Assembly: GCA_965214605.1 (NCBI GenBank)
Contig: OZ243961.1
Coordinates: 1,103,008-1,167,007, forward strand
DNA from: an uncultured Candidatus Binatia bacterium
Lineage (GTDB): Bacteria; Desulfobacterota; Binatia; Bin18
Direction: 5' to 3'
DNA length: 64,000 nt
Below the pieces are notes generated by a model that saw only the letters and a list, made by a program, of their open reading frames with translations, searched no databases and was not told where the DNA came from. The position numbers were made by a program, and so were the translations under genes. This document shows, piece by piece, positions 1,858 through 13,416 of this stretch (the stretch's first letter is position 1; each line of letters starts with the position of its first letter).

Positions 1858-3996
1858 ATGACCAAACGAGAAAGACACACTGGCTGTGGTGAGCAGATGA
1901 CCCTGCTCACCCGGCGCGCCAGGGACGACCTCGGCACGCTAGTCGGCCAGTTGACAAGCGCCCAAGGAGACCGGCGCCGTGAGCTGCAAGCCCTTCTCCA
2001 ACGCCGGCTGACCGATCCAGGCCAGTTGGCAGACAGTTCGGTCCTGCCGGCTGACCACCCGCTGAGACGCCAGGCAAGGATTGTTCAGCAGCTGTTCAGC
2101 GCCGTCACTACTGCTCCGCTGTCGACGGGCGCCCTGGCCGGCTTAGACACCATCCCGCGCCAATCTCCGCTGGCACCCTGGAAATTACTCATCCGCGCAC
2201 TTGATGCGTTTTATCGCCGCGCAGATGAACTGGCTGAAGCCAATCTGGCCCGGATCCCGGCCGATTCCGGTCCGGGCCGTTTGGTCCCAGTCCTGCGAGC
2301 CCTGCTGAGTAAAACCGATACACTGGCTGAGTCGGAATTTCCCGACCCCAGCGCTCATGTAGCGGCCCTGTTGGAGCAGGTCAGCGCCGGCAATCACGCC
2401 CGACGCAGCCAGCTCAGCCAGGCACTGCTCTCTCATAACGAAAACCCTCCCCGCGCCACCCTACAACCCTTCCTCCCGTGGCTGGCCACTCTTCCGGCTA
2501 GCCATAGACACACGTTTATAAGGACGATGTTACACCACTGGCAACGGAATGGGGGGCTGTCACCCGGCCTCATAGACCTCCTCAGCCATCAAAGCATTGA
2601 CCCCGATATGCAGCGTCTTGCTGCCCTCAGCCTTGAACACCGCCACTGGGACGGGGCACTGCTGCTGTGGGACGCCTACCTCAGCGCGGCTCAGGCCGCA
2701 GGGCGGCTGTCTCCGAGCAGCCCGGAAACCGTTCATATTCTGCTGCATATGAGCGATCTGTTTCCGTCCGCTCCGCAGCAGATACTAGACGATTTAGGCC
2801 TGGCTTCTGAACAAGCACTCCGGCACCTGATCCGCACCGGCCAGTTTCCGGCCGTCTTTGATCGGGCCGCCCTGCTTGACCGGGCACGTCAAGCCGTCGG
2901 GGCTCTCTCGCCTCAACTCGGAGCACGGGTCTTTCGGGCCTCACTCGCCTACCATGAGCGGCGCGATGTCAAACGGGCCGAGGCTGAGGCCGAAGCCTGG
3001 CACAGCGCCTATCCGCACGATCTTGAGCCCCTGCTCTACCTGCTTGAAACCGCAGAAAAGCGTGGCGCAGTCCGAAAAGCGCTCGATTTTGTAGCCAAAG
3101 CAGAAGCCCTGAACCGCCTCCATCCCCAGCTACGGCACAGCCGGTTTCGGCTCCTGTTATCAAGAGCCGAGCGGCGGATTCAAGAGGCCAAATCCACGCT
3201 GGCCTTGGCCGATCTGGAACGCCTAGCCCAAGAACCACGAGCCAACGAGGGCGATACCAAAGCTTATCTGTTGTCTCTCAACTGGGCGCTCGCCCACAAA
3301 ATGGGCGATGCCGCCAGCGCCCAAAATCTGGCGCAGACCTTAGCCAGAACGGTCAACAATCAGGCTCTGCACGCCCTGATCCTCGCCACTGTGAGTGAGA
3401 TTACCAAAGTCTCTCGCCCTCAATGGTCAGCGAAAATTCCGTCCCTCCAGGCGATTGAGGGGCTGGCGCGGGCATGTGCCCTGTTTGGGGCGCTGAACCA
3501 TCGGGTAGCTGTACCGGACAGTTTCGTGAGCCAGGTTGAAAAAAACCTGGACAAGGCCACTGTGGCTCAGTTGCACGCCCTGTGTCACGGCGGCTTAGCC
3601 ATCGGGCAGCCAACCCTGACCTATATCGCTGCCGGTCACGGGCTGCGCTACCCAGAACCCCACCTGCACCGTTTTCTGTTGGCTCGCGGCAAAAGCCTAG
3701 GGGGAATACTCACCCATGCTCACCAAACCCGAGCCCGCAACTGTCTACGGGCGGCCCGTGAGTTGGCCAACCGGACACGGGATAAAGAGGCAACGGACCA
3801 GGCAGCGGCAGCACTCGACACACTGCCGACCTGGGGAGAGATAGAGGCCGTGCTGCTTGCTGCTCCCCACCACCCGCCTAGTCAGGCACAAATAGACCTG
3901 GCTCTTGAGGTCGAACGCCGTCATACTACGCCGCCACGTCTGGCCGGCCACGCGGCCGCTCACAGGCCCACTTTATCACAAGAAGCCTTGCGATAG
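1858..3996 (+). CDS. hypothetical 712-aa helical (TPR/HEAT-like composition) protein, first gene of the atypical Hsp70 cluster
   Basis: Long uninterrupted ORF, Leu/Ala/Arg-rich with no catalytic motif seen. Co-directional with and immediately upstream of the J-domain gene. Confidence 0.65.
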   Translation: MTKRERHTGCGEQMTLLTRRARDDLGTLVGQLTSAQGDRRRELQALLQRRLTDPGQLADSSVLPADHPLRRQARIVQQLFSAVTTAPLSTGALAGLDTIPRQSPLAPWKLLIRALDAFYRRADELAEANLARIPADSGPGRLVPVLRALLSKTDTLAESEFPDPSAHVAALLEQVSAGNHARRSQLSQALLSHNENPPRATLQPFLPWLATLPASHRHTFIRTMLHHWQRNGGLSPGLIDLLSHQSIDPDMQRLAALSLEHRHWDGALLLWDAYLSAAQAAGRLSPSSPETVHILLHMSDLFPSAPQQILDDLGLASEQALRHLIRTGQFPAVFDRAALLDRARQAVGALSPQLGARVFRASLAYHERRDVKRAEAEAEAWHSAYPHDLEPLLYLLETAEKRGAVRKALDFVAKAEALNRLHPQLRHSRFRLLLSRAERRIQEAKSTLALADLERLAQEPRANEGDTKAYLLSLNWALAHKMGDAASAQNLAQTLARTVNNQALHALILATVSEITKVSRPQWSAKIPSLQAIEGLARACALFGALNHRVAVPDSFVSQVEKNLDKATVAQLHALCHGGLAIGQPTLTYIAAGHGLRYPEPHLHRFLLARGKSLGGILTHAHQTRARNCLRAARELANRTRDKEATDQAAAALDTLPTWGEIEAVLLAAPHHPPSQAQIDLALEVERRHTTPPRLAGHAAAHRPTLSQEALR

Positions 3997-4012
3997 GATG
4001 TGGTGCTTAACA

Positions 4013-4321
4013 ATGAAAAACACCGCCATGCTCAACCCTTTTGTCGTTCTCAATGTTAAAGACACCGCCGATGATGAGACCATTCGGGCGGCCTATGTGC
4101 GAGCCCTCAGGCATTCCCCACCAGACCGCGATCCGGAAGGATTTGGCCGGATTCGGGATGCGTATGAAGCGATTCGGGATGCCGAAAAACGTCTCGCCTA
4201 TCGCCTGTTCGGTCCGTTGCCGCTCGCCCGAGTTGAGGACCTATTTGATCTCATACCAGACGAACGGCGGCATCTCGGTCCAGAGCCGTGGTTAAATATC
4301 CTGCGGGGGGCACAACGGTGA
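4013..4321 (+). CDS. small J-domain protein (DnaJ-like) with non-canonical HPD region
   Basis: MKNTAMLNPFVVLNVKDTADDETIRAAYVRALRHSPPDRDPEGFGRIRDAYEAIRDAEKRLAY follows the J-domain helix II-loop-helix III pattern. An alternative ATG lies at 3998. No G/F region or Zn-finger region. Confidence 0.75.
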   Translation: MKNTAMLNPFVVLNVKDTADDETIRAAYVRALRHSPPDRDPEGFGRIRDAYEAIRDAEKRLAYRLFGPLPLARVEDLFDLIPDERRHLGPEPWLNILRGAQR

Positions 4322-5016
4322 GCAGGTTCACTGCGGACCAACGTCAACGTCTGCTAGAGACTGTCCAATCCTGGCTTGACGAACTCGATCAGGCAGAGCC
4401 GGCCCCGTCGGGTCTTTCCCCTGACATCATGGCTTCACCTGAGCCAGTTCCCGATCTGTTTTCTGTACTTGGGCAGCTGAGCGCGCTGACTCGTGAGACC
4501 CAGCTGCAAGGCCGGGCCACCAACCGTCTGCACACCGAACTTGGTCAGACCCTAGACGGGCTGGCCGAGCAAGTTGCCCAAAGCGAGACATCCACCTCTG
4601 GCCAAGCCTTAGTCCGCCAACTGAGCCAGGCACGGCGCGAGACGCGCACCGAACTCGTATCCGAGCTGCTTGAGGTCCGCGACCACCTGAGCCGTAATCT
4701 GATCGAGGCCGAGCGGCGGCTCACCAACTTGAGCGGCCTACGTGCCCGTCTTGGCCAACGTCCGGTGCTCGAAGCCCTCGTCAAAGGCACGCATCTGGCC
4801 CAGGAGCGGCTCGACGATCTGCTGCGGCGGCTGGATGTGTACGAGATTGCATGTCTTAACGCGGCATTCGATCCAAATCTGATGCGAGCAACCGCAGTCA
4901 GTCACACCACCACTGCAGTTCCAGGCACGGTAATCGCAGTTATCCGTCCCGGCTACACCTGTAACGGCCAGGTCATACGTTTTGCCGAAGTAAAGGTGGC
5001 CAAGAACAAGGAATGA
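4318..5016 (+). CDS. GrpE-like nucleotide exchange factor
   Basis: C-terminus AFDPNLMRATAV...PGTVIAVIRPGYTCNGQVIRFAEVKVA matches the GrpE beta-domain signature (FDP..H.A, GY...g..lR.A.V.V). The GTG start overlaps the J-gene stop as GTGA. Confidence 0.7.
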   Translation: MSRFTADQRQRLLETVQSWLDELDQAEPAPSGLSPDIMASPEPVPDLFSVLGQLSALTRETQLQGRATNRLHTELGQTLDGLAEQVAQSETSTSGQALVRQLSQARRETRTELVSELLEVRDHLSRNLIEAERRLTNLSGLRARLGQRPVLEALVKGTHLAQERLDDLLRRLDVYEIACLNAAFDPNLMRATAVSHTTTAVPGTVIAVIRPGYTCNGQVIRFAEVKVAKNKE

Positions 5017-5048
5017 GAAACGGCGGAGAAAGACGCTGACCAACGACC

Positions 5049-6917
5049 ATGACACATGACACTATCCTTGGCATTGACCTGGGCACCACCACCTCCGAGG
5101 TTGCGGCCATCGTCGGTGGCGAAGTCCAGGTGTTGGCCGTTGACGGCGAGCGGACGATGCCTTCGGTCGTCGGCCTCACTCCAGACAACCGTATCCTGGT
5201 TGGCACCCCGGCTCGGAATCAATACCCCTTGTATCCAACCCGCACGGTGAAGTCGATCAAACGCCTGATGGGCTCCTCTCAACAGGTCGTGCTGGGCCGG
5301 CACAGCTATTCCCCACCAGAAATCTCAGCCCTGATCCTACGCAGACTGAAAACACGCGCTGAGACTGTCCTGGGCCGCTCACTCCCCCGAGCGGTTATCA
5401 CCGTGCCGGCCTATTTCTCCGACGCCCAACGCCAAGCCACCCGAGACGCCGGCCACATCGCCGGCCTGGAGGTCGTCCGTATTCTCAATGAACCGACCGC
5501 CGCAGCCCTGGCCTATGGCGCCGACCGGCGGGGAGAGCGCACAGTCCTGATTTATGACCTGGGCGGAGGGACGTTCGATGTGTCCCTGGTCCAGGTCCGG
5601 GACGAGATTACCGAGGTCATCGCCAGTCACGGCAACAACCACCTGGGCGGTGATGATTTCGACCAGCGGTTGTTGGACTGGGTCCATGACCAGTTTGTCC
5701 AGTCGGGCGGCCCAGACATTCGAACCGATCCCATAGCTATGAGCCGTCTATTATGTGCGGTTGAGGAGGCCAAAAAGCGCCTGAGCTTTGAGCCCTACAC
5801 CCGTATTCGGGAAGAGCATTTGGCCGAACAAAATGGGGTCCCAGTCCACCTTGATCTGGAAATATCTCGGGCGGACTATGAACTGTTGATCCAGCATCTG
5901 GTGGAAACCACCCTGGACAGCGTGCATCAAGCACTGAACGACGCAGGGAAGCGGCCGGACCAGATTGACGAGGTGCTGCTGGTCGGTGGCGCGAGTCGTA
6001 CGCCGCTGGTATCCCAGCTTCTTGAAGACAAGACCGGCTTAGTCCCCCACCAAGACCTCCAGCCCGAGCTGTGTGTCGCCTTTGGGGCCGGGGTGTTAGC
6101 CGCCCGCCAGGCGGGCCACAATATTGATCGGGTTTTGGTCGATATCTCGCCCTACTCTTTTGGTCCGTCGCACCTTGGTTTTCTGAACGGTAGACCGTAT
6201 GAACACTGTTACCACCCGATTATTCGGCGCAACACGCCCCTGCCAGTCAGCCGCACCGACTCCTACCATACGCTGGTTGACGGGCAAGCCGACTGGCAGG
6301 TATCCGTCTATCAGGGCGACGATCCAGACGCCTTAAACAACATTTTGGTTGGACGCTTCTGCGTGGAAGGACTCTCCCACGTGCCGGCCGGCAATGAGAT
6401 GCTGTGCCGTATGGAACTCGATCTGGATGGAATTCTCAAAGTCACGGCTATTGAGAAGCGCACCGGTTTGGCCCGGCACATTACGATTGAGGGAGCTACT
6501 ACTGCCATGTCAGCCGAGGATCTGGCCCAAGCCCGTCAGCGTACGCACGACTTATTGGCCCAGGACTGCACAGACACGGCCGAAGCGTTTGAGCAGGAGG
6601 AGATACATTCCGGCCGGACCGAACTGACGACATACGAGAACGCTGATGGCCACCAGAGCCGGATGAAACCAGCGTTGACGTTTGTGGAAACCACCCAGGA
6701 CCGCGAAAGCCAAGAGCTGCGCCAACACGTGTTTGCCGCCGGCCGCCTGTTAGAGCGAAGCCGTCGCCTGCTGAAAAAAATGACGCCTGAAGACCAACAA
6801 GAGGCGCTCGAGCTGCACCAACAAATCGAGGAGGCGCTGCGGATACAGAATTGGGACTATCTCCACACGGCAATTACCGAGCTGACCGATCTGCTGTTTT
6901 ATGTCGAAGAAGCCTAG
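5049..6917 (+). CDS. Hsp70-family ATPase (DnaK paralog)
   Basis: GIDLGTTTSEVA, DLGGGTFDVS and VLLVGGASRTPLV motifs plus a substrate-binding beta-domain (VYQGDD...ILKVTAIEKRTG). The C-terminal ~130 aa are unlike the DnaK lid. Confidence 0.9.
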   Translation: MTHDTILGIDLGTTTSEVAAIVGGEVQVLAVDGERTMPSVVGLTPDNRILVGTPARNQYPLYPTRTVKSIKRLMGSSQQVVLGRHSYSPPEISALILRRLKTRAETVLGRSLPRAVITVPAYFSDAQRQATRDAGHIAGLEVVRILNEPTAAALAYGADRRGERTVLIYDLGGGTFDVSLVQVRDEITEVIASHGNNHLGGDDFDQRLLDWVHDQFVQSGGPDIRTDPIAMSRLLCAVEEAKKRLSFEPYTRIREEHLAEQNGVPVHLDLEISRADYELLIQHLVETTLDSVHQALNDAGKRPDQIDEVLLVGGASRTPLVSQLLEDKTGLVPHQDLQPELCVAFGAGVLAARQAGHNIDRVLVDISPYSFGPSHLGFLNGRPYEHCYHPIIRRNTPLPVSRTDSYHTLVDGQADWQVSVYQGDDPDALNNILVGRFCVEGLSHVPAGNEMLCRMELDLDGILKVTAIEKRTGLARHITIEGATTAMSAEDLAQARQRTHDLLAQDCTDTAEAFEQEEIHSGRTELTTYENADGHQSRMKPALTFVETTQDRESQELRQHVFAAGRLLERSRRLLKKMTPEDQQEALELHQQIEEALRIQNWDYLHTAITELTDLLFYVEEA

Positions 6918-6935
6918 CCACGGAGACTCTCCAGC

Positions 6936-7304
6936 GTGTCTGACAGCACTCCTTCTTCCTCCGGCACTCCTCGTTCATCACTGCAAGAGGCACATTGTCC
7001 AACCTGCCGGGCAGCTTGGCGTGGGGCGGCTGTCTGCGCCCGATGTGGGACCGACCTAGACCCGCTCATGCGTCTGGCAACAAAAGCCTGGCAGCTACGT
7101 GAGCGGTCCCGTCAAGCCCTAGGTGCAGAGGACCGCGCTGCCGAAGCCCTGGCCTGGGCCGAGGTTGCCTGTCAGCTCCAGGCAACGACACGCGGCCTGC
7201 GCTTACTAGCCTTGGCCTTGCTTGCCAACGGTGCCGTGGCAGAGGCAGTGGCGATGATTGAGCAAATCTCCAAGGGGGAGGAGGCTCGCTGTACCCGCGT
7301 ATGA
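6936..7304 (+). CDS. hypothetical protein with N-terminal zinc-ribbon (CPTC...CARC)
   Basis: GTG start 18 nt after the Hsp70 stop. CPTCRAAWRGAAVCARCGTDL four-Cys motif followed by a helical Ala/Leu-rich tail. Confidence 0.5.
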   Translation: MSDSTPSSSGTPRSSLQEAHCPTCRAAWRGAAVCARCGTDLDPLMRLATKAWQLRERSRQALGAEDRAAEALAWAEVACQLQATTRGLRLLALALLANGAVAEAVAMIEQISKGEEARCTRV

Positions 7305-11518: not shown

Positions 11519-12067
11519 ATGCGAATACGCCACTACTCCATAACGAAACGCCTCGTCTTCGTTGGGCCGTTTCTGTATGTGCTCGTGCTGGCGACGGCAT
11601 CCCTCACGGGGCGGGGAGAAATCTACCCCTTCTTTGCCTGGGACTTGTTCGCGGGGGTGCCGGCGGGGTGGGTCATCCAGACGCCCGCCGTGGTGGCGCA
11701 TCCGATGGACGACTCCCGAAATTTAGGGGGGGGGGGGGGACGCTGGGTCATTCCGTCCCCCGACCCCCGGCATTTGAAGGTGCTGCGCGAGGTCCTGCAC
11801 GCGTGTGAGCGCCGCGCGGCCCCCGCGTGCCGGTCCGCCGTGGCCCGCCTGCTGCTCCCCCTCGTCGTTGACGGCGTGGGGAGCGGCGCCGTGGAGTTCA
11901 GTCTCGTCTGGGCGGCCGTCGATCTGCGCGCCCTCCGGGAGGACATCTGGGCGCTCGCCGCCGGCCGCACGCAGCGCATGGACTATGCCCGGGTCGCTAC
12001 GGTGCTCTCGCGGTGGCGCGCGGCCGCGGCCGGCGGCCTGCACCGGGTTGATGGGGGCACCCCGTGA
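11519..12067 (+). CDS. hypothetical membrane-anchored protein containing a G14-encoded Gly run
   Basis: ATG 11519. MRIRHYSITKRLVFVGPFLYVLVLATASL is a TM anchor, followed by EIYPFFAWDLF. The stop overlaps the next start as GTGA. The tracked 358-aa ORF (10991..) probably over-extends upstream. Confidence 0.5.
   Translation: MRIRHYSITKRLVFVGPFLYVLVLATASLTGRGEIYPFFAWDLFAGVPAGWVIQTPAVVAHPMDDSRNLGGGGGRWVIPSPDPRHLKVLREVLHACERRAAPACRSAVARLLLPLVVDGVGSGAVEFSLVWAAVDLRALREDIWALAAGRTQRMDYARVATVLSRWRAAAAGGLHRVDGGTP
11726..11739. repeat. homopolymeric G14 tract inside a coding sequence
   Basis: Counted directly: ...aatttag then 14 G then acgctgg. It encodes GGGGG in the current frame. Confidence 0.95.
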
Positions 12068-13416
12068 ACGCTGCGCGGCTGCAGGGCCGGCTCCGCAAGA
12101 CCCTCCTCCACGTGGAGACGGGGGAGCGGCGGCGCGCGGCCGACTTCTCGCGGGCCGCGCGCCACATCGCCGTGCTGGTCCGGTTCTATTACATCTTCGT
12201 CGCGTACCTCCTCTTCGGCCGGTTCAAGGTTGCGAATTTGCTCCACGGCATTCCCCCGCCCGCGCCGTTGTGGCCCCTGGACCTGATGGCGACAGTCGCG
12301 GGCTCCGCGTGGCTCGCGTGGGGCGAGCTCCTCACGGCGGCGGGCGTGGGGGTGGCGCTGCTGGCGGCGCTGTGTCCGGGCGTGCTGCTCTTCCGGCTTG
12401 GGGTCTTCGTCTATCTCTTCATCGGCATCGCGCTGGCCAACTCCTATGGCGCCATCAGCCATGGGCGCCATCTCTTCCTCTATGTCTCCTTCGGGTTGTT
12501 GTGGCTGCCGGCGGCCATCGGCCGCCCGGAGCGCATGGCGCGCCGGGAGGCGATGGCGTGCAACGCGGCCTTCTGGCTGACACAGGCACTGCTGCTGCTG
12601 CCCTACAGCCTCAGCGGCTTCTGGACACTCTGGCGCAGCAACCTCCAGTTGGTGTCCCTCGACTCCTTCGTCCGGCTGGTCCTCGCCGGCCTGCTCGAAC
12701 AGGCCGGCGGGCCCCTCCCGCCGCTGGTCCCGTGGCTCGCCCAGTACCCCTCGGTCGGCCAGGGCTTGTATCTGGCGTTTTGCTATGTGGAAGGGCTGCT
12801 GCTCGTCAGTCTGTTCCGCCCCCACTTGCAGCGAGGGTTCGGCCTGGTCGTCATCGGGTTCCATCTCGGGACGCGGTGGCTGCTCGGCTTTGCCGCCGCT
12901 CCCTACCTCGTGCTCTGGTTCCTCTTCCTGGTGGCTTCGCCGTTCGCCGCGGCCCGGTTCTCCCCGGTCGCCACGGCGCGCTCGCTGCCGCTCCTCGGCC
13001 TCCCCTTCCGCGCGTGGGCGCGCTGGAGGCGCCCGGAGAAAGGGGCGGAGAAGGCGTGGCTGGTGTATGATGGCGAGTGCCCGTTCTGTTCGCGTTACTC
13101 ACGCATGGTCGATGTGAGAGATGCCATCGGCGAACTCATACTCGTGAACGCCCGCGATGGGGGGCCGATCGTGGACGAGATCAAGGCCCTGCCTTGGGAT
13201 CTCAACAGGGGCATGGTACTGAAACTGAACGGACGATACCGGTTTGGCGACGAGGCCCTGCACACCTTGGCGCTCCTGTCGCGGAAGAATGGCGCATTCG
13301 GCATCCTGAACCGTCTCGTGCTCGGTTCGCGCGCGGTCGCATGGTTCGCATACCCGCTGTTGAAGCTCTGCAGGAGGCTGGCGCTGATGGCGAAAAGGGT
13401 TCCGGTCCTGAAGTAG
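12064..13416 (+). CDS. fusion protein: polytopic membrane domain (possibly HTTM-like, unverified) + C-terminal DCC1-like thiol-disulfide oxidoreductase (DUF393)
   Basis: About 330 aa with multiple hydrophobic spans. Then WLVYDGECPFCSRYSRMVD carries the DxxCxxC motif that defines the DCC family, and the rest of the C-terminal domain is DCC-like. Confidence 0.75.
   Translation: MNAARLQGRLRKTLLHVETGERRRAADFSRAARHIAVLVRFYYIFVAYLLFGRFKVANLLHGIPPPAPLWPLDLMATVAGSAWLAWGELLTAAGVGVALLAALCPGVLLFRLGVFVYLFIGIALANSYGAISHGRHLFLYVSFGLLWLPAAIGRPERMARREAMACNAAFWLTQALLLLPYSLSGFWTLWRSNLQLVSLDSFVRLVLAGLLEQAGGPLPPLVPWLAQYPSVGQGLYLAFCYVEGLLLVSLFRPHLQRGFGLVVIGFHLGTRWLLGFAAAPYLVLWFLFLVASPFAAARFSPVATARSLPLLGLPFRAWARWRRPEKGAEKAWLVYDGECPFCSRYSRMVDVRDAIGELILVNARDGGPIVDEIKALPWDLNRGMVLKLNGRYRFGDEALHTLALLSRKNGAFGILNRLVLGSRAVAWFAYPLLKLCRRLALMAKRVPVLK

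Follow-up and report, generated by a model that had tools for sequence, protein, structure and literature searches.

Why would a bacterium encode, among genes of ordinary metabolism, an Hsp70 with its own J-like protein and its own GrpE, all packed between two helical-repeat proteins? The question is raised by a 64,000-nucleotide stretch of DNA from an uncultured Candidatus Binatia bacterium (assembly GCA_965214605.1, contig OZ243961.1, positions 1,103,008 to 1,167,007; hereafter the window), in which a first-pass annotation had singled out a five-gene Hsp70 module and judged it unlike the housekeeping grpE-dnaK-dnaJ operon. That judgement is borne out: the Hsp70 misses the DnaK equivalog cut-offs and carries HscC-type insertions and deletions, the J-like protein lacks the HPD tripeptide, and the module is duplicated on a Rokubacteria contig. 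It is well supported that this Hsp70 module, which is of the HscC lineage, is accessory, self-contained and chromosomal and has two dedicated partners resembling tetratricopeptide repeat (TPR) proteins, and equally well supported that the motif change in its J-like partner is under selection. As to how the module works, the best explanation that we can offer, and in which we place about even confidence, is an accessory, self-contained HscC-lineage Hsp70 machine that is encoded in one operon and mounted on a scaffold, with an insulated J–Hsp70 pair.

The five genes are separated by 16, -4, 32 and 18 nt, the negative value reflecting the GTGA at 4318–4321 in which the J-gene stop and the GrpE start overlap; the tight co-directional packing and this overlap had been described before, and open reading frame (ORF) analysis finds all of it in place. 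The genes, and the shorter features within three of them, are:

1858–3996, plus strand: protein of 712 aa, modelled as a TPR-like alpha-solenoid; the signature gene of the module.
4013–4321, plus strand: J-like protein, 102 aa counted from the ATG at 4013.
4118–4126, plus strand: PPD tripeptide Pro36-Pro37-Asp38 at the HPD position, read from the codons (rhsPPDR opposite kyHPDR of DnaJ).
4318–5016, plus strand: GrpE-family nucleotide exchange factor, 232 aa, GTG start.
5049–6917, plus strand: Hsp70 of HscC type by its insertions and deletions, with nucleotide-binding domain (NBD), linker, beta part of the substrate-binding domain (SBD-beta) and shortened lid, 622 aa.
6180–6203, plus strand: eight-residue insertion FLNGRPYE in loop L1,2 of the SBD-beta, by the substrate cleft, located by alignment; HscC has an insertion at the same place.
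6936–7304, plus strand: small Zn-ribbon/TPR-like protein, 122 aa, GTG start.
6996–7046, plus strand: Zn-ribbon core CPTC-x3-W-x5-C-x-RCG-x-DL, the same in all of 22 homologues aligned, and conserved across 60 loci.

Many homologues of the J-like protein use the equivalent of the ATG at 4028 as their start. Profile searches with Pfam, NCBIfam and PADLOC were run on the module proteins; Pfam DnaJ, GrpE and HSP70 matched as the gene names would lead one to expect, the 712-aa protein has no Pfam match, and the small protein gives only weak, sub-threshold zinc-ribbon matches. Promoter and terminator scans returned counts not above those in shuffled sequence.

Do the two flanking genes belong with the chaperone triad? 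The first-pass annotation had asked whether the 712-aa and Zn-ribbon genes are co-conserved with this Hsp70, and they are, in both directions of search. With the 712-aa protein as query and one genome per GTDB species, 74 loci were found in at least seven phyla (Binatia, Rokubacteria/Methylomirabilota, Nitrospinota, Acidobacteriota, Planctomycetota, Myxococcota, Hydrogenedentota), the Acidobacteriota carriers belonging to Bryobacterales, Holophagales and Thermoanaerobaculia, and the loci nearest to the module of the window being other Binatia at 70–72% identity. In tblastn searches with the five window proteins, counting only loci with at least 4.2 kb of downstream sequence (n = 54), all five genes occur in the same order and on the same strand in 53 loci, and three further contexts with precomputed Pfam calls show the same arrangement. 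The lone exception, in an Acidobacteria gp6 metagenome-assembled genome (MAG; locus L073, 9600–12600), has a split TPR gene followed by J-like and GrpE genes, with the Hsp70 and Zn-ribbon genes absent downstream, and is either a decayed copy or a misassembly. Conversely, when the Zn-ribbon protein was used as query on JGI metagenome contigs, an Hsp70 C-terminus stood directly upstream of the Zn-ribbon gene in 36 of 41 contigs, and each of the seven long contigs (7/7) had the four upstream genes complete. Because 53 of 54 loci repeat the same gene order and the reciprocal test agrees, the five-gene arrangement is far beyond chance. The Hsp70s of these loci share 48–82% identity. One Rokubacteria MAG contig, CAVXVV010000055.1, carries two complete modules (L019 and L054) about 25 kb apart. 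Outside the five genes, clustering of the ORFs on either side revealed no family in common except among close relatives, and no Pfam family occurs more than three times among 150 immediate neighbour proteins.

The Hsp70 at the centre of the module is an unmistakable member of its family (Pfam HSP70, 2.7e-131), and its best NCBIfam and PDB matches are DnaK models, with 39% identity to E. coli DnaK. It nonetheless falls below the NCBIfam DnaK equivalog cut-offs (NF001413, 485.6 vs 648; TIGR02350, 471.9 vs 822.55) and also below that for HscA. The ATPase motifs that had been read from the sequence, GIDLGTTTS, DLGGGTFDVS and LLVGGASRTP, were all located, and T11, K70, R71, R151, R167, N170, E171, T173, D194, T199, D201, D393, P419 and D481 are unchanged in 57 of 58 module Hsp70s. 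Since the catalytic and allosteric residues are kept, the protein should hydrolyse ATP.

Its affinities become clearer on alignment with E. coli DnaK, HscA and HscC. In lobe I of the NBD the segment corresponding to DnaK 76–101 is deleted, with boundaries identical to those in HscC (KRAMGSN---TNWRLG vs KRLMGSS---QQVVLG); beyond the L1,2 insertion, the SBD strand reads SPYSFG, against CPYSLG in HscC and TPLSLG in DnaK, and a one-residue deletion in the following beta hairpin is common to the module Hsp70 and HscC. The lid has a helix A/B deletion at the HscC position (RQ---RTHDLL vs RT---RLSAL), and the C-terminal end is short and acidic/aliphatic (LLFYVEEA vs DYLAIEIP in HscC). In Mayer's review, HscC is marked by the deletion of DnaK ~76–101, a 4–8-residue insertion in L1,2, a lid helix B shortened by about nine residues and a C-terminal end that is short and acidic/aliphatic (PMC8215388). 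A neighbour-joining quartet over 525 ungapped columns, with references from E. coli only and long-branch attraction possible, pairs the module with HscC, and DnaK with HscA, in every one of 100 bootstraps. Judged by insertions, deletions and this tree, the module Hsp70 is of HscC type, and its client range is probably narrow because the HscC-like changes lie around the substrate cleft and the lid.

In one respect the protein departs from HscC. The loop of subdomain IIB that forms the "GrpE signature" region is shortened in HscA and HscC and has DnaK length in the module Hsp70, as would suit an Hsp70 that invariably comes with a GrpE gene of its own. Loss of this loop and independence from GrpE go with HscC, whereas the module has both the full loop and an adjacent GrpE gene, and is therefore a GrpE-retaining relative rather than a typical HscC. 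The exchange factor itself matches Pfam GrpE over residues 71–229 (5.1e-23, 82 bits vs a cut-off of 25.8), leaving the extra N-terminus of about 70 aa that had earlier been called long and non-canonical; it lies under every NCBIfam GrpE equivalog cut-off, and its gene always adjoins that of the Hsp70, at the same position in other loci. The earlier impression that the Hsp70 C-terminus does not resemble the DnaK lid holds in part: helices A/B are partly deleted and followed by a variable acidic insert, but beyond that insert the last ~60 aa align with DnaK lid helices C–E. The protein ends in a conserved motif, (D/E)LLF(Y/F)(V/M)E(E/G). Docking of this LLF(Y/F)VE end on TPR proteins in the manner of an EEVD tail was considered and downgraded, as in alignment the motif falls at the end of helix E of the DnaK lid.

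How would a J protein without its hallmark tripeptide serve such an Hsp70? The J-like protein is recognised by Pfam DnaJ (2e-8, 34.7 bits vs a cut-off of 27.8) and aligns to the DnaJ structures 1bqz and 5nro_B; its best E. coli match is DjlB, with 40% identity over 55 aa, and it shares with DjlB/DjlC the short loop DP(E/Q)GF. It had been described as a bare J domain of about 100 aa, and Pfam and alignment indeed find no G/F region, Zn finger or client-binding domains, but that description overlooked the replacement of HPD by PPD. Functional J-domain proteins carry HPD, with HPE tolerated; in the family alignment the tripeptide is PPD or PPE in 71 of 71 members and canonical HPD in none, and the protein therefore falls with the non-HPD J proteins described as a "type IV / pseudo-JDP" class (PMC13254874). 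That all 71, from at least seven phyla, have PPD or PPE, beside their own Hsp70 and GrpE, is the pattern that purifying selection on a non-HPD motif would give. In the DnaK–DnaJ complex, H33 forms a hydrogen bond to the carbonyl of L391, P34 touches P419, and D35 is bonded to R167 and to Q378 (PMC8215388). L391, P419 and R167 are invariant in the module Hsp70s, and Q378 is replaced by L or M in 56 of 58; because the first three are kept, two of the three HPD contacts could persist in the module pair, and we infer that H33P in the J domain and Q378L/M in the Hsp70 may be compensatory. The same 71-member alignment reveals a conserved extension of about 35 aa after the J domain, LFGPxPL...ERRxVGPxPWLxVL, which is a candidate docking peptide.

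What might it dock on? Close homologues of the 712-aa protein number at least 191, every one of them either without annotation or called "hypothetical", and a profile search with the family reached 1,680 50%-identity cluster representatives at E ≤ 1e-3 and 452 at E ≤ 1e-30. It was correctly anticipated to be all-helical: in its AlphaFold2 model (mean predicted local distance difference test score, pLDDT, 78.7) it is all helix and takes the form of a TPR-like helical-hairpin repeat superhelix. About 120 positions are invariant across sequences of 46–82% identity. Most family members have some 810–1000 aa, with an additional TPR unit on the N-terminal side, an N-terminus that is polybasic and a tail at the C-terminus, and no extra domains were found in the longer (~1000-aa) members. 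In the Binatia clade of the window, the N-terminal TPR unit (~85 aa) and the basic/hydrophobic C-terminal tail have both been lost. Where a tail is present it is rather distinctive: 72 of 257 members finish in a polybasic run (e.g., KKGRRR-COOH), and a hydrophobic-Phe dipeptide occurs within the last 30 residues in 135 of 257, usually after a basic run and in 24 of those 135 in the form Q-x-x-[LM]-F, some tails finishing exactly in QGSLF. The tail motif [RQ]xxLF is reminiscent of a site bound by DnaK, of the beta-clamp motif QL[SD]LF and of the helix that targets MinD to the membrane; the QGSLF end may likewise be akin to the beta-clamp-binding motif. Comparison by hhalign showed no kinship of the TPR protein with the C-terminal part of DjlC.

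The small protein at the other end of the module combines an N-terminal Zn ribbon with four helices that form two TPR-like repeats in its fold. Its ribbon cysteines, C21-P-T-C24 and C34-A-R-C37, are invariant in the homologues, so that the earlier description of a small CxxC...CxxC zinc-ribbon protein stands, with the repeats as an addition. The source annotation of this gene (P0272) has 78 aa, starts at Met45 and omits the CPxC...CxRCG ribbon; the start in the public record is probably mis-called, because homologues of about 127 aa include the ribbon. Homology of the protein to Hep1/Zim17 (zf-DNL) is not supported, no DNL-type likeness of sequence or fold being detected.

Is such an arrangement known? 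No description of it was found in the open literature, but the earlier remark that no assigned function is known for it has to be qualified, as the HscC–DjlB/DjlC system is a described relative. The module is a specialised Hsp70 system whose closest described relative is E. coli HscC with DjlB/DjlC. That system was reportedly described by Kluck et al. in 2002. Like the module, it is a specialised, non-heat-shock Hsp70 system, in which the Hsp70 has lost DnaK 76–101, has gained an insertion in L1,2, carries the PYS(F/L)G strand, has a deletion in helix A/B and ends in a short acidic/aliphatic C-terminus, and in which the partner J domains are of the short-loop type (HPETDPQGF vs PPDRDPEGF in the module) with a non-canonical tripeptide; it is reviewed in PMC8215388. 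The differences are equally instructive. HscC lacks the IIB "GrpE signature" loop and is GrpE-independent, whereas the module has the loop and always a GrpE gene; DjlB and DjlC are HPE proteins of about 480 aa, whereas the J-like protein of the module has about 95 aa and PPD; the partners at the HscC locus are Sel1 and DUF1266 proteins, those of the module TPR-like proteins of ~700–1000 aa and Zn-ribbon/TPR proteins; and the variable acidic lid insert is found in the module Hsp70 and not in HscC. In E. coli K-12 (676000–690000, L079), a Sel1-repeat/DUF1266/J triplet is duplicated beside hscC, as ybeQ-ybeR-djlB and ybeT-ybeU-djlC; with Sel1-repeat genes at this locus, helical-repeat partners therefore accompany classical HscC too.

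Other Hsp70 systems are further removed. DnaK–DnaJ–GrpE draws on the same three families, with catalytic residues kept and probably the same ATPase cycle, but the gene order of the module is J–GrpE–Hsp70 with two extra flanking genes, and its J protein lacks the HPD, G/F region, Zn finger and C-terminal client-binding domains of DnaJ. The mitochondrial import motor PAM (mtHsp70, Pam18, J-like Pam16, Mge1, Hep1/Zim17, Tim44) offers an analogy only. In PAM, Hep1/Zim17 is a Zn-finger escort and Tim44 a scaffold. Common to both are an Hsp70, a GrpE-type exchange factor and a non-HPD J-like protein (PMC13254874), and each adds a small protein that binds Zn and a scaffold that is no enzyme; unlike PAM, the module has no second, HPD-bearing J protein and no membrane channel partner. 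The GAP1-N2 GTPase-centred systems (PMC7159879) and the CoCoNuT CnuD Hsp70 with HEAT repeats (PMC11090510) likewise combine Hsp70 with helical-repeat proteins, and the GTPase-centred conflict systems contain GrpE and DnaJ domains as well, but the module has an intact ATPase and no GTPase, tubulin, McrBC or effector genes. Membership in Aravind-type GTPase/HSP70 conflict systems or CoCoNuT CnuD was accordingly rejected, the required partners being absent, as was kinship with Myxococcus grpS-sglK or the cyanobacterial DnaK1/DnaJ3/GrpE set, in which the J protein is unlinked and the TPR and Zn-ribbon genes are absent.

How, then, might a scaffold-mounted Hsp70 machine operate? The H-to-P change in the J domain, together with the family-wide change of Q378 to L or M, would make an orthogonal J–Hsp70 pair insulated from housekeeping DnaK and DnaJ. 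The ~35-aa tail of the J-like protein would dock on the TPR superhelix, on the Zn-ribbon/TPR protein, or on both, and such docking would place the Hsp70 on the scaffold. There the Hsp70 could grip a basic-plus-hydrophobic handle, in most members the scaffold's own C-terminal [RQ]xxLF tail, or, alternatively, a client that the scaffold holds. Through repeated rounds of ATP hydrolysis, with GrpE driving nucleotide exchange, it would then change the state of assembly of the scaffold complex. The scaffold's polybasic ends would, in most lineages, probably keep the complex at an anionic surface, be it membrane or nucleic acid.

Several observations weigh against this scheme. It may be that PPD does no more than abolish stimulation of the ATPase, as happens in the pseudo-J-domain of Pam16, in which case the J-like protein would be a regulator or tether and not an activator. 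The clade of the window lacks both the C-terminal tail and the N-terminal TPR unit of the scaffold; with the tail lost there, the proposed Hsp70 handle cannot be essential. The LLF(Y/F)VE motif of the Hsp70 is probably just the end of lid helix E and not an EEVD-like docking tail. The module is the sole Hsp70/J/GrpE set within the 64-kb window, to which the analysis of this genome was confined. Finally, the named carriers are all uncultured MAGs, and therefore no phenotype exists to draw on; no cultured carrier with published phenotypes stands among the named hits, and the literature on the MXAN_274x genes gave nothing usable.

The main alternative keeps the HscC character of the system and changes the role of the two flanking proteins: rather than being what is remodelled, the TPR and Zn-ribbon/TPR proteins would be co-chaperones that deliver clients encoded elsewhere, such as membrane proteins, a sigma factor or replication factors. 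E. coli HscC, which uses specialised J proteins and has been proposed as a membrane-protein chaperone (PMC8215388), is a precedent for such an adaptor system, its locus also holds the helical-repeat (Sel1) genes ybeQ and ybeT, the polybasic ends of the scaffold suggest localisation to membrane or nucleic acid, and the QGSLF end of some tails may be akin to the beta-clamp-binding motif. Against it, no candidate client gene is linked to the module in the ~40 neighbourhoods inspected, and the TPR protein, with its many invariant positions, is far more conserved than a generic adaptor usually is. We regard this as a serious possibility, if still an unlikely one. A role in defence or in housekeeping is, as the evidence stands, unlikely. 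One could ask whether the Hsp70 is a switch in an anti-phage or conflict system, like the GTPase-centred HSP70/GrpE/DnaJ systems or CoCoNuT CnuD, since Hsp70-containing conflict systems are on record (PMC7159879, PMC11090510) and the module is patchy across distant phyla, with variable flanks and with some copies adjoining transposases or toxin–antitoxin genes. Yet no module protein has a meaningful match in PADLOC-DB v2 (a spurious LmuB at E = 0.033 is the only hit), the flanks are not enriched in defence families, no nuclease, protease or pore-former effector domain and no GTPase, tubulin or McrBC partner was found, and the module was found neither on 72,556 plasmids nor on viral contigs. 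Its gene order is strict, its Hsp70s retain 48–82% identity, and its ATPase is intact where that of CnuD is degenerate, all of which renders a conflict role improbable.

Least probable by far is that we are looking at a divergent housekeeping grpE-dnaK-dnaJ operon of this lineage. In its favour, DnaK models are the best matches of the Hsp70, and a second Hsp70/J/GrpE set is absent from the window, the part of the genome that was read. Against this, the Hsp70 combines sub-cut-off DnaK scores with HscC-type insertions and deletions, the J protein lacks HPD and all client-binding domains, and the module is always coupled to two extra proteins and duplicated on one Rokubacteria contig; it is moreover sporadic in its phyla, whereas dnaK is reported in 98.9% of bacterial genomes (PMC11019930). 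Pressed further, the scaffold-mounted machine suggests a bolder proposal, which we put forward as a doubtful one: an evolutionarily insulated, GrpE-dependent HscC-like Hsp70, driven or gated by a J domain whose PPD would be positively selected, that works on a dedicated TPR superhelix at an anionic surface (membrane, or DNA and the replisome), the [RQ]xxLF or QGSLF-COOH tail of the scaffold serving either as a built-in Hsp70 handle or as a sliding-clamp-binding motif, and the whole representing a new class of bacterial Hsp70 machine. A handle of this kind has a eukaryotic parallel in the QLMLT motif, by which Hsp70 takes hold in clathrin uncoating.

The surroundings of the module in the window are those of an ordinary metabolic region, with genes for a short-chain dehydrogenase/reductase (SDR), a luciferase-like monooxygenase, a methyltransferase and a hydantoinase. 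Immediately upstream, at 1100–1825 on the minus strand, lies a divergent gene for a 241-aa protein with a hydrophobic N-terminal segment and no Pfam match, which is syntenic with the module in Binatia relatives only (L001, L002, L004, L006, L007) and not in other phyla. Further along, the segment 11800–13420 has an odd composition (GC 0.66, AT skew -0.21) and contains three long overlapping ORFs in different frames, at 11805–13070 (plus), 11983–12864 (minus) and 12064–13416 (plus), the last of which encodes an Arg/Pro/Ala-rich region of ~330 aa followed by a C-terminal DCC1-like thiol-disulfide oxidoreductase domain. Between 20000 and 32000 the AT skew swings from -0.21 at 20–22 kb to between +0.13 and +0.22 over 24–32 kb, which coincides with a run of minus-strand genes.

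For the specialist in chaperones, the surprise of this module lies in its invariant PPD, in an HscC-like Hsp70 that depends on GrpE, and in its TPR-scaffold design. A PPD or PPE J protein with its own Hsp70 is a matched pair for biochemistry and a clear case of conserved deviation from HPD, and an HscC-type Hsp70 that still uses GrpE is an evolutionary link between HscC and DnaK. Two large unannotated protein families thereby gain a functional context, and the module points to TPR-scaffolded Hsp70 machines in bacteria, a design known from eukaryotes. If the bolder proposal is true, the module would be the first bacterial counterpart of the scaffolded eukaryotic Hsp70 machines, among them PAM, RAC and auxilin–clathrin, and would show that deviation from HPD can be functional.

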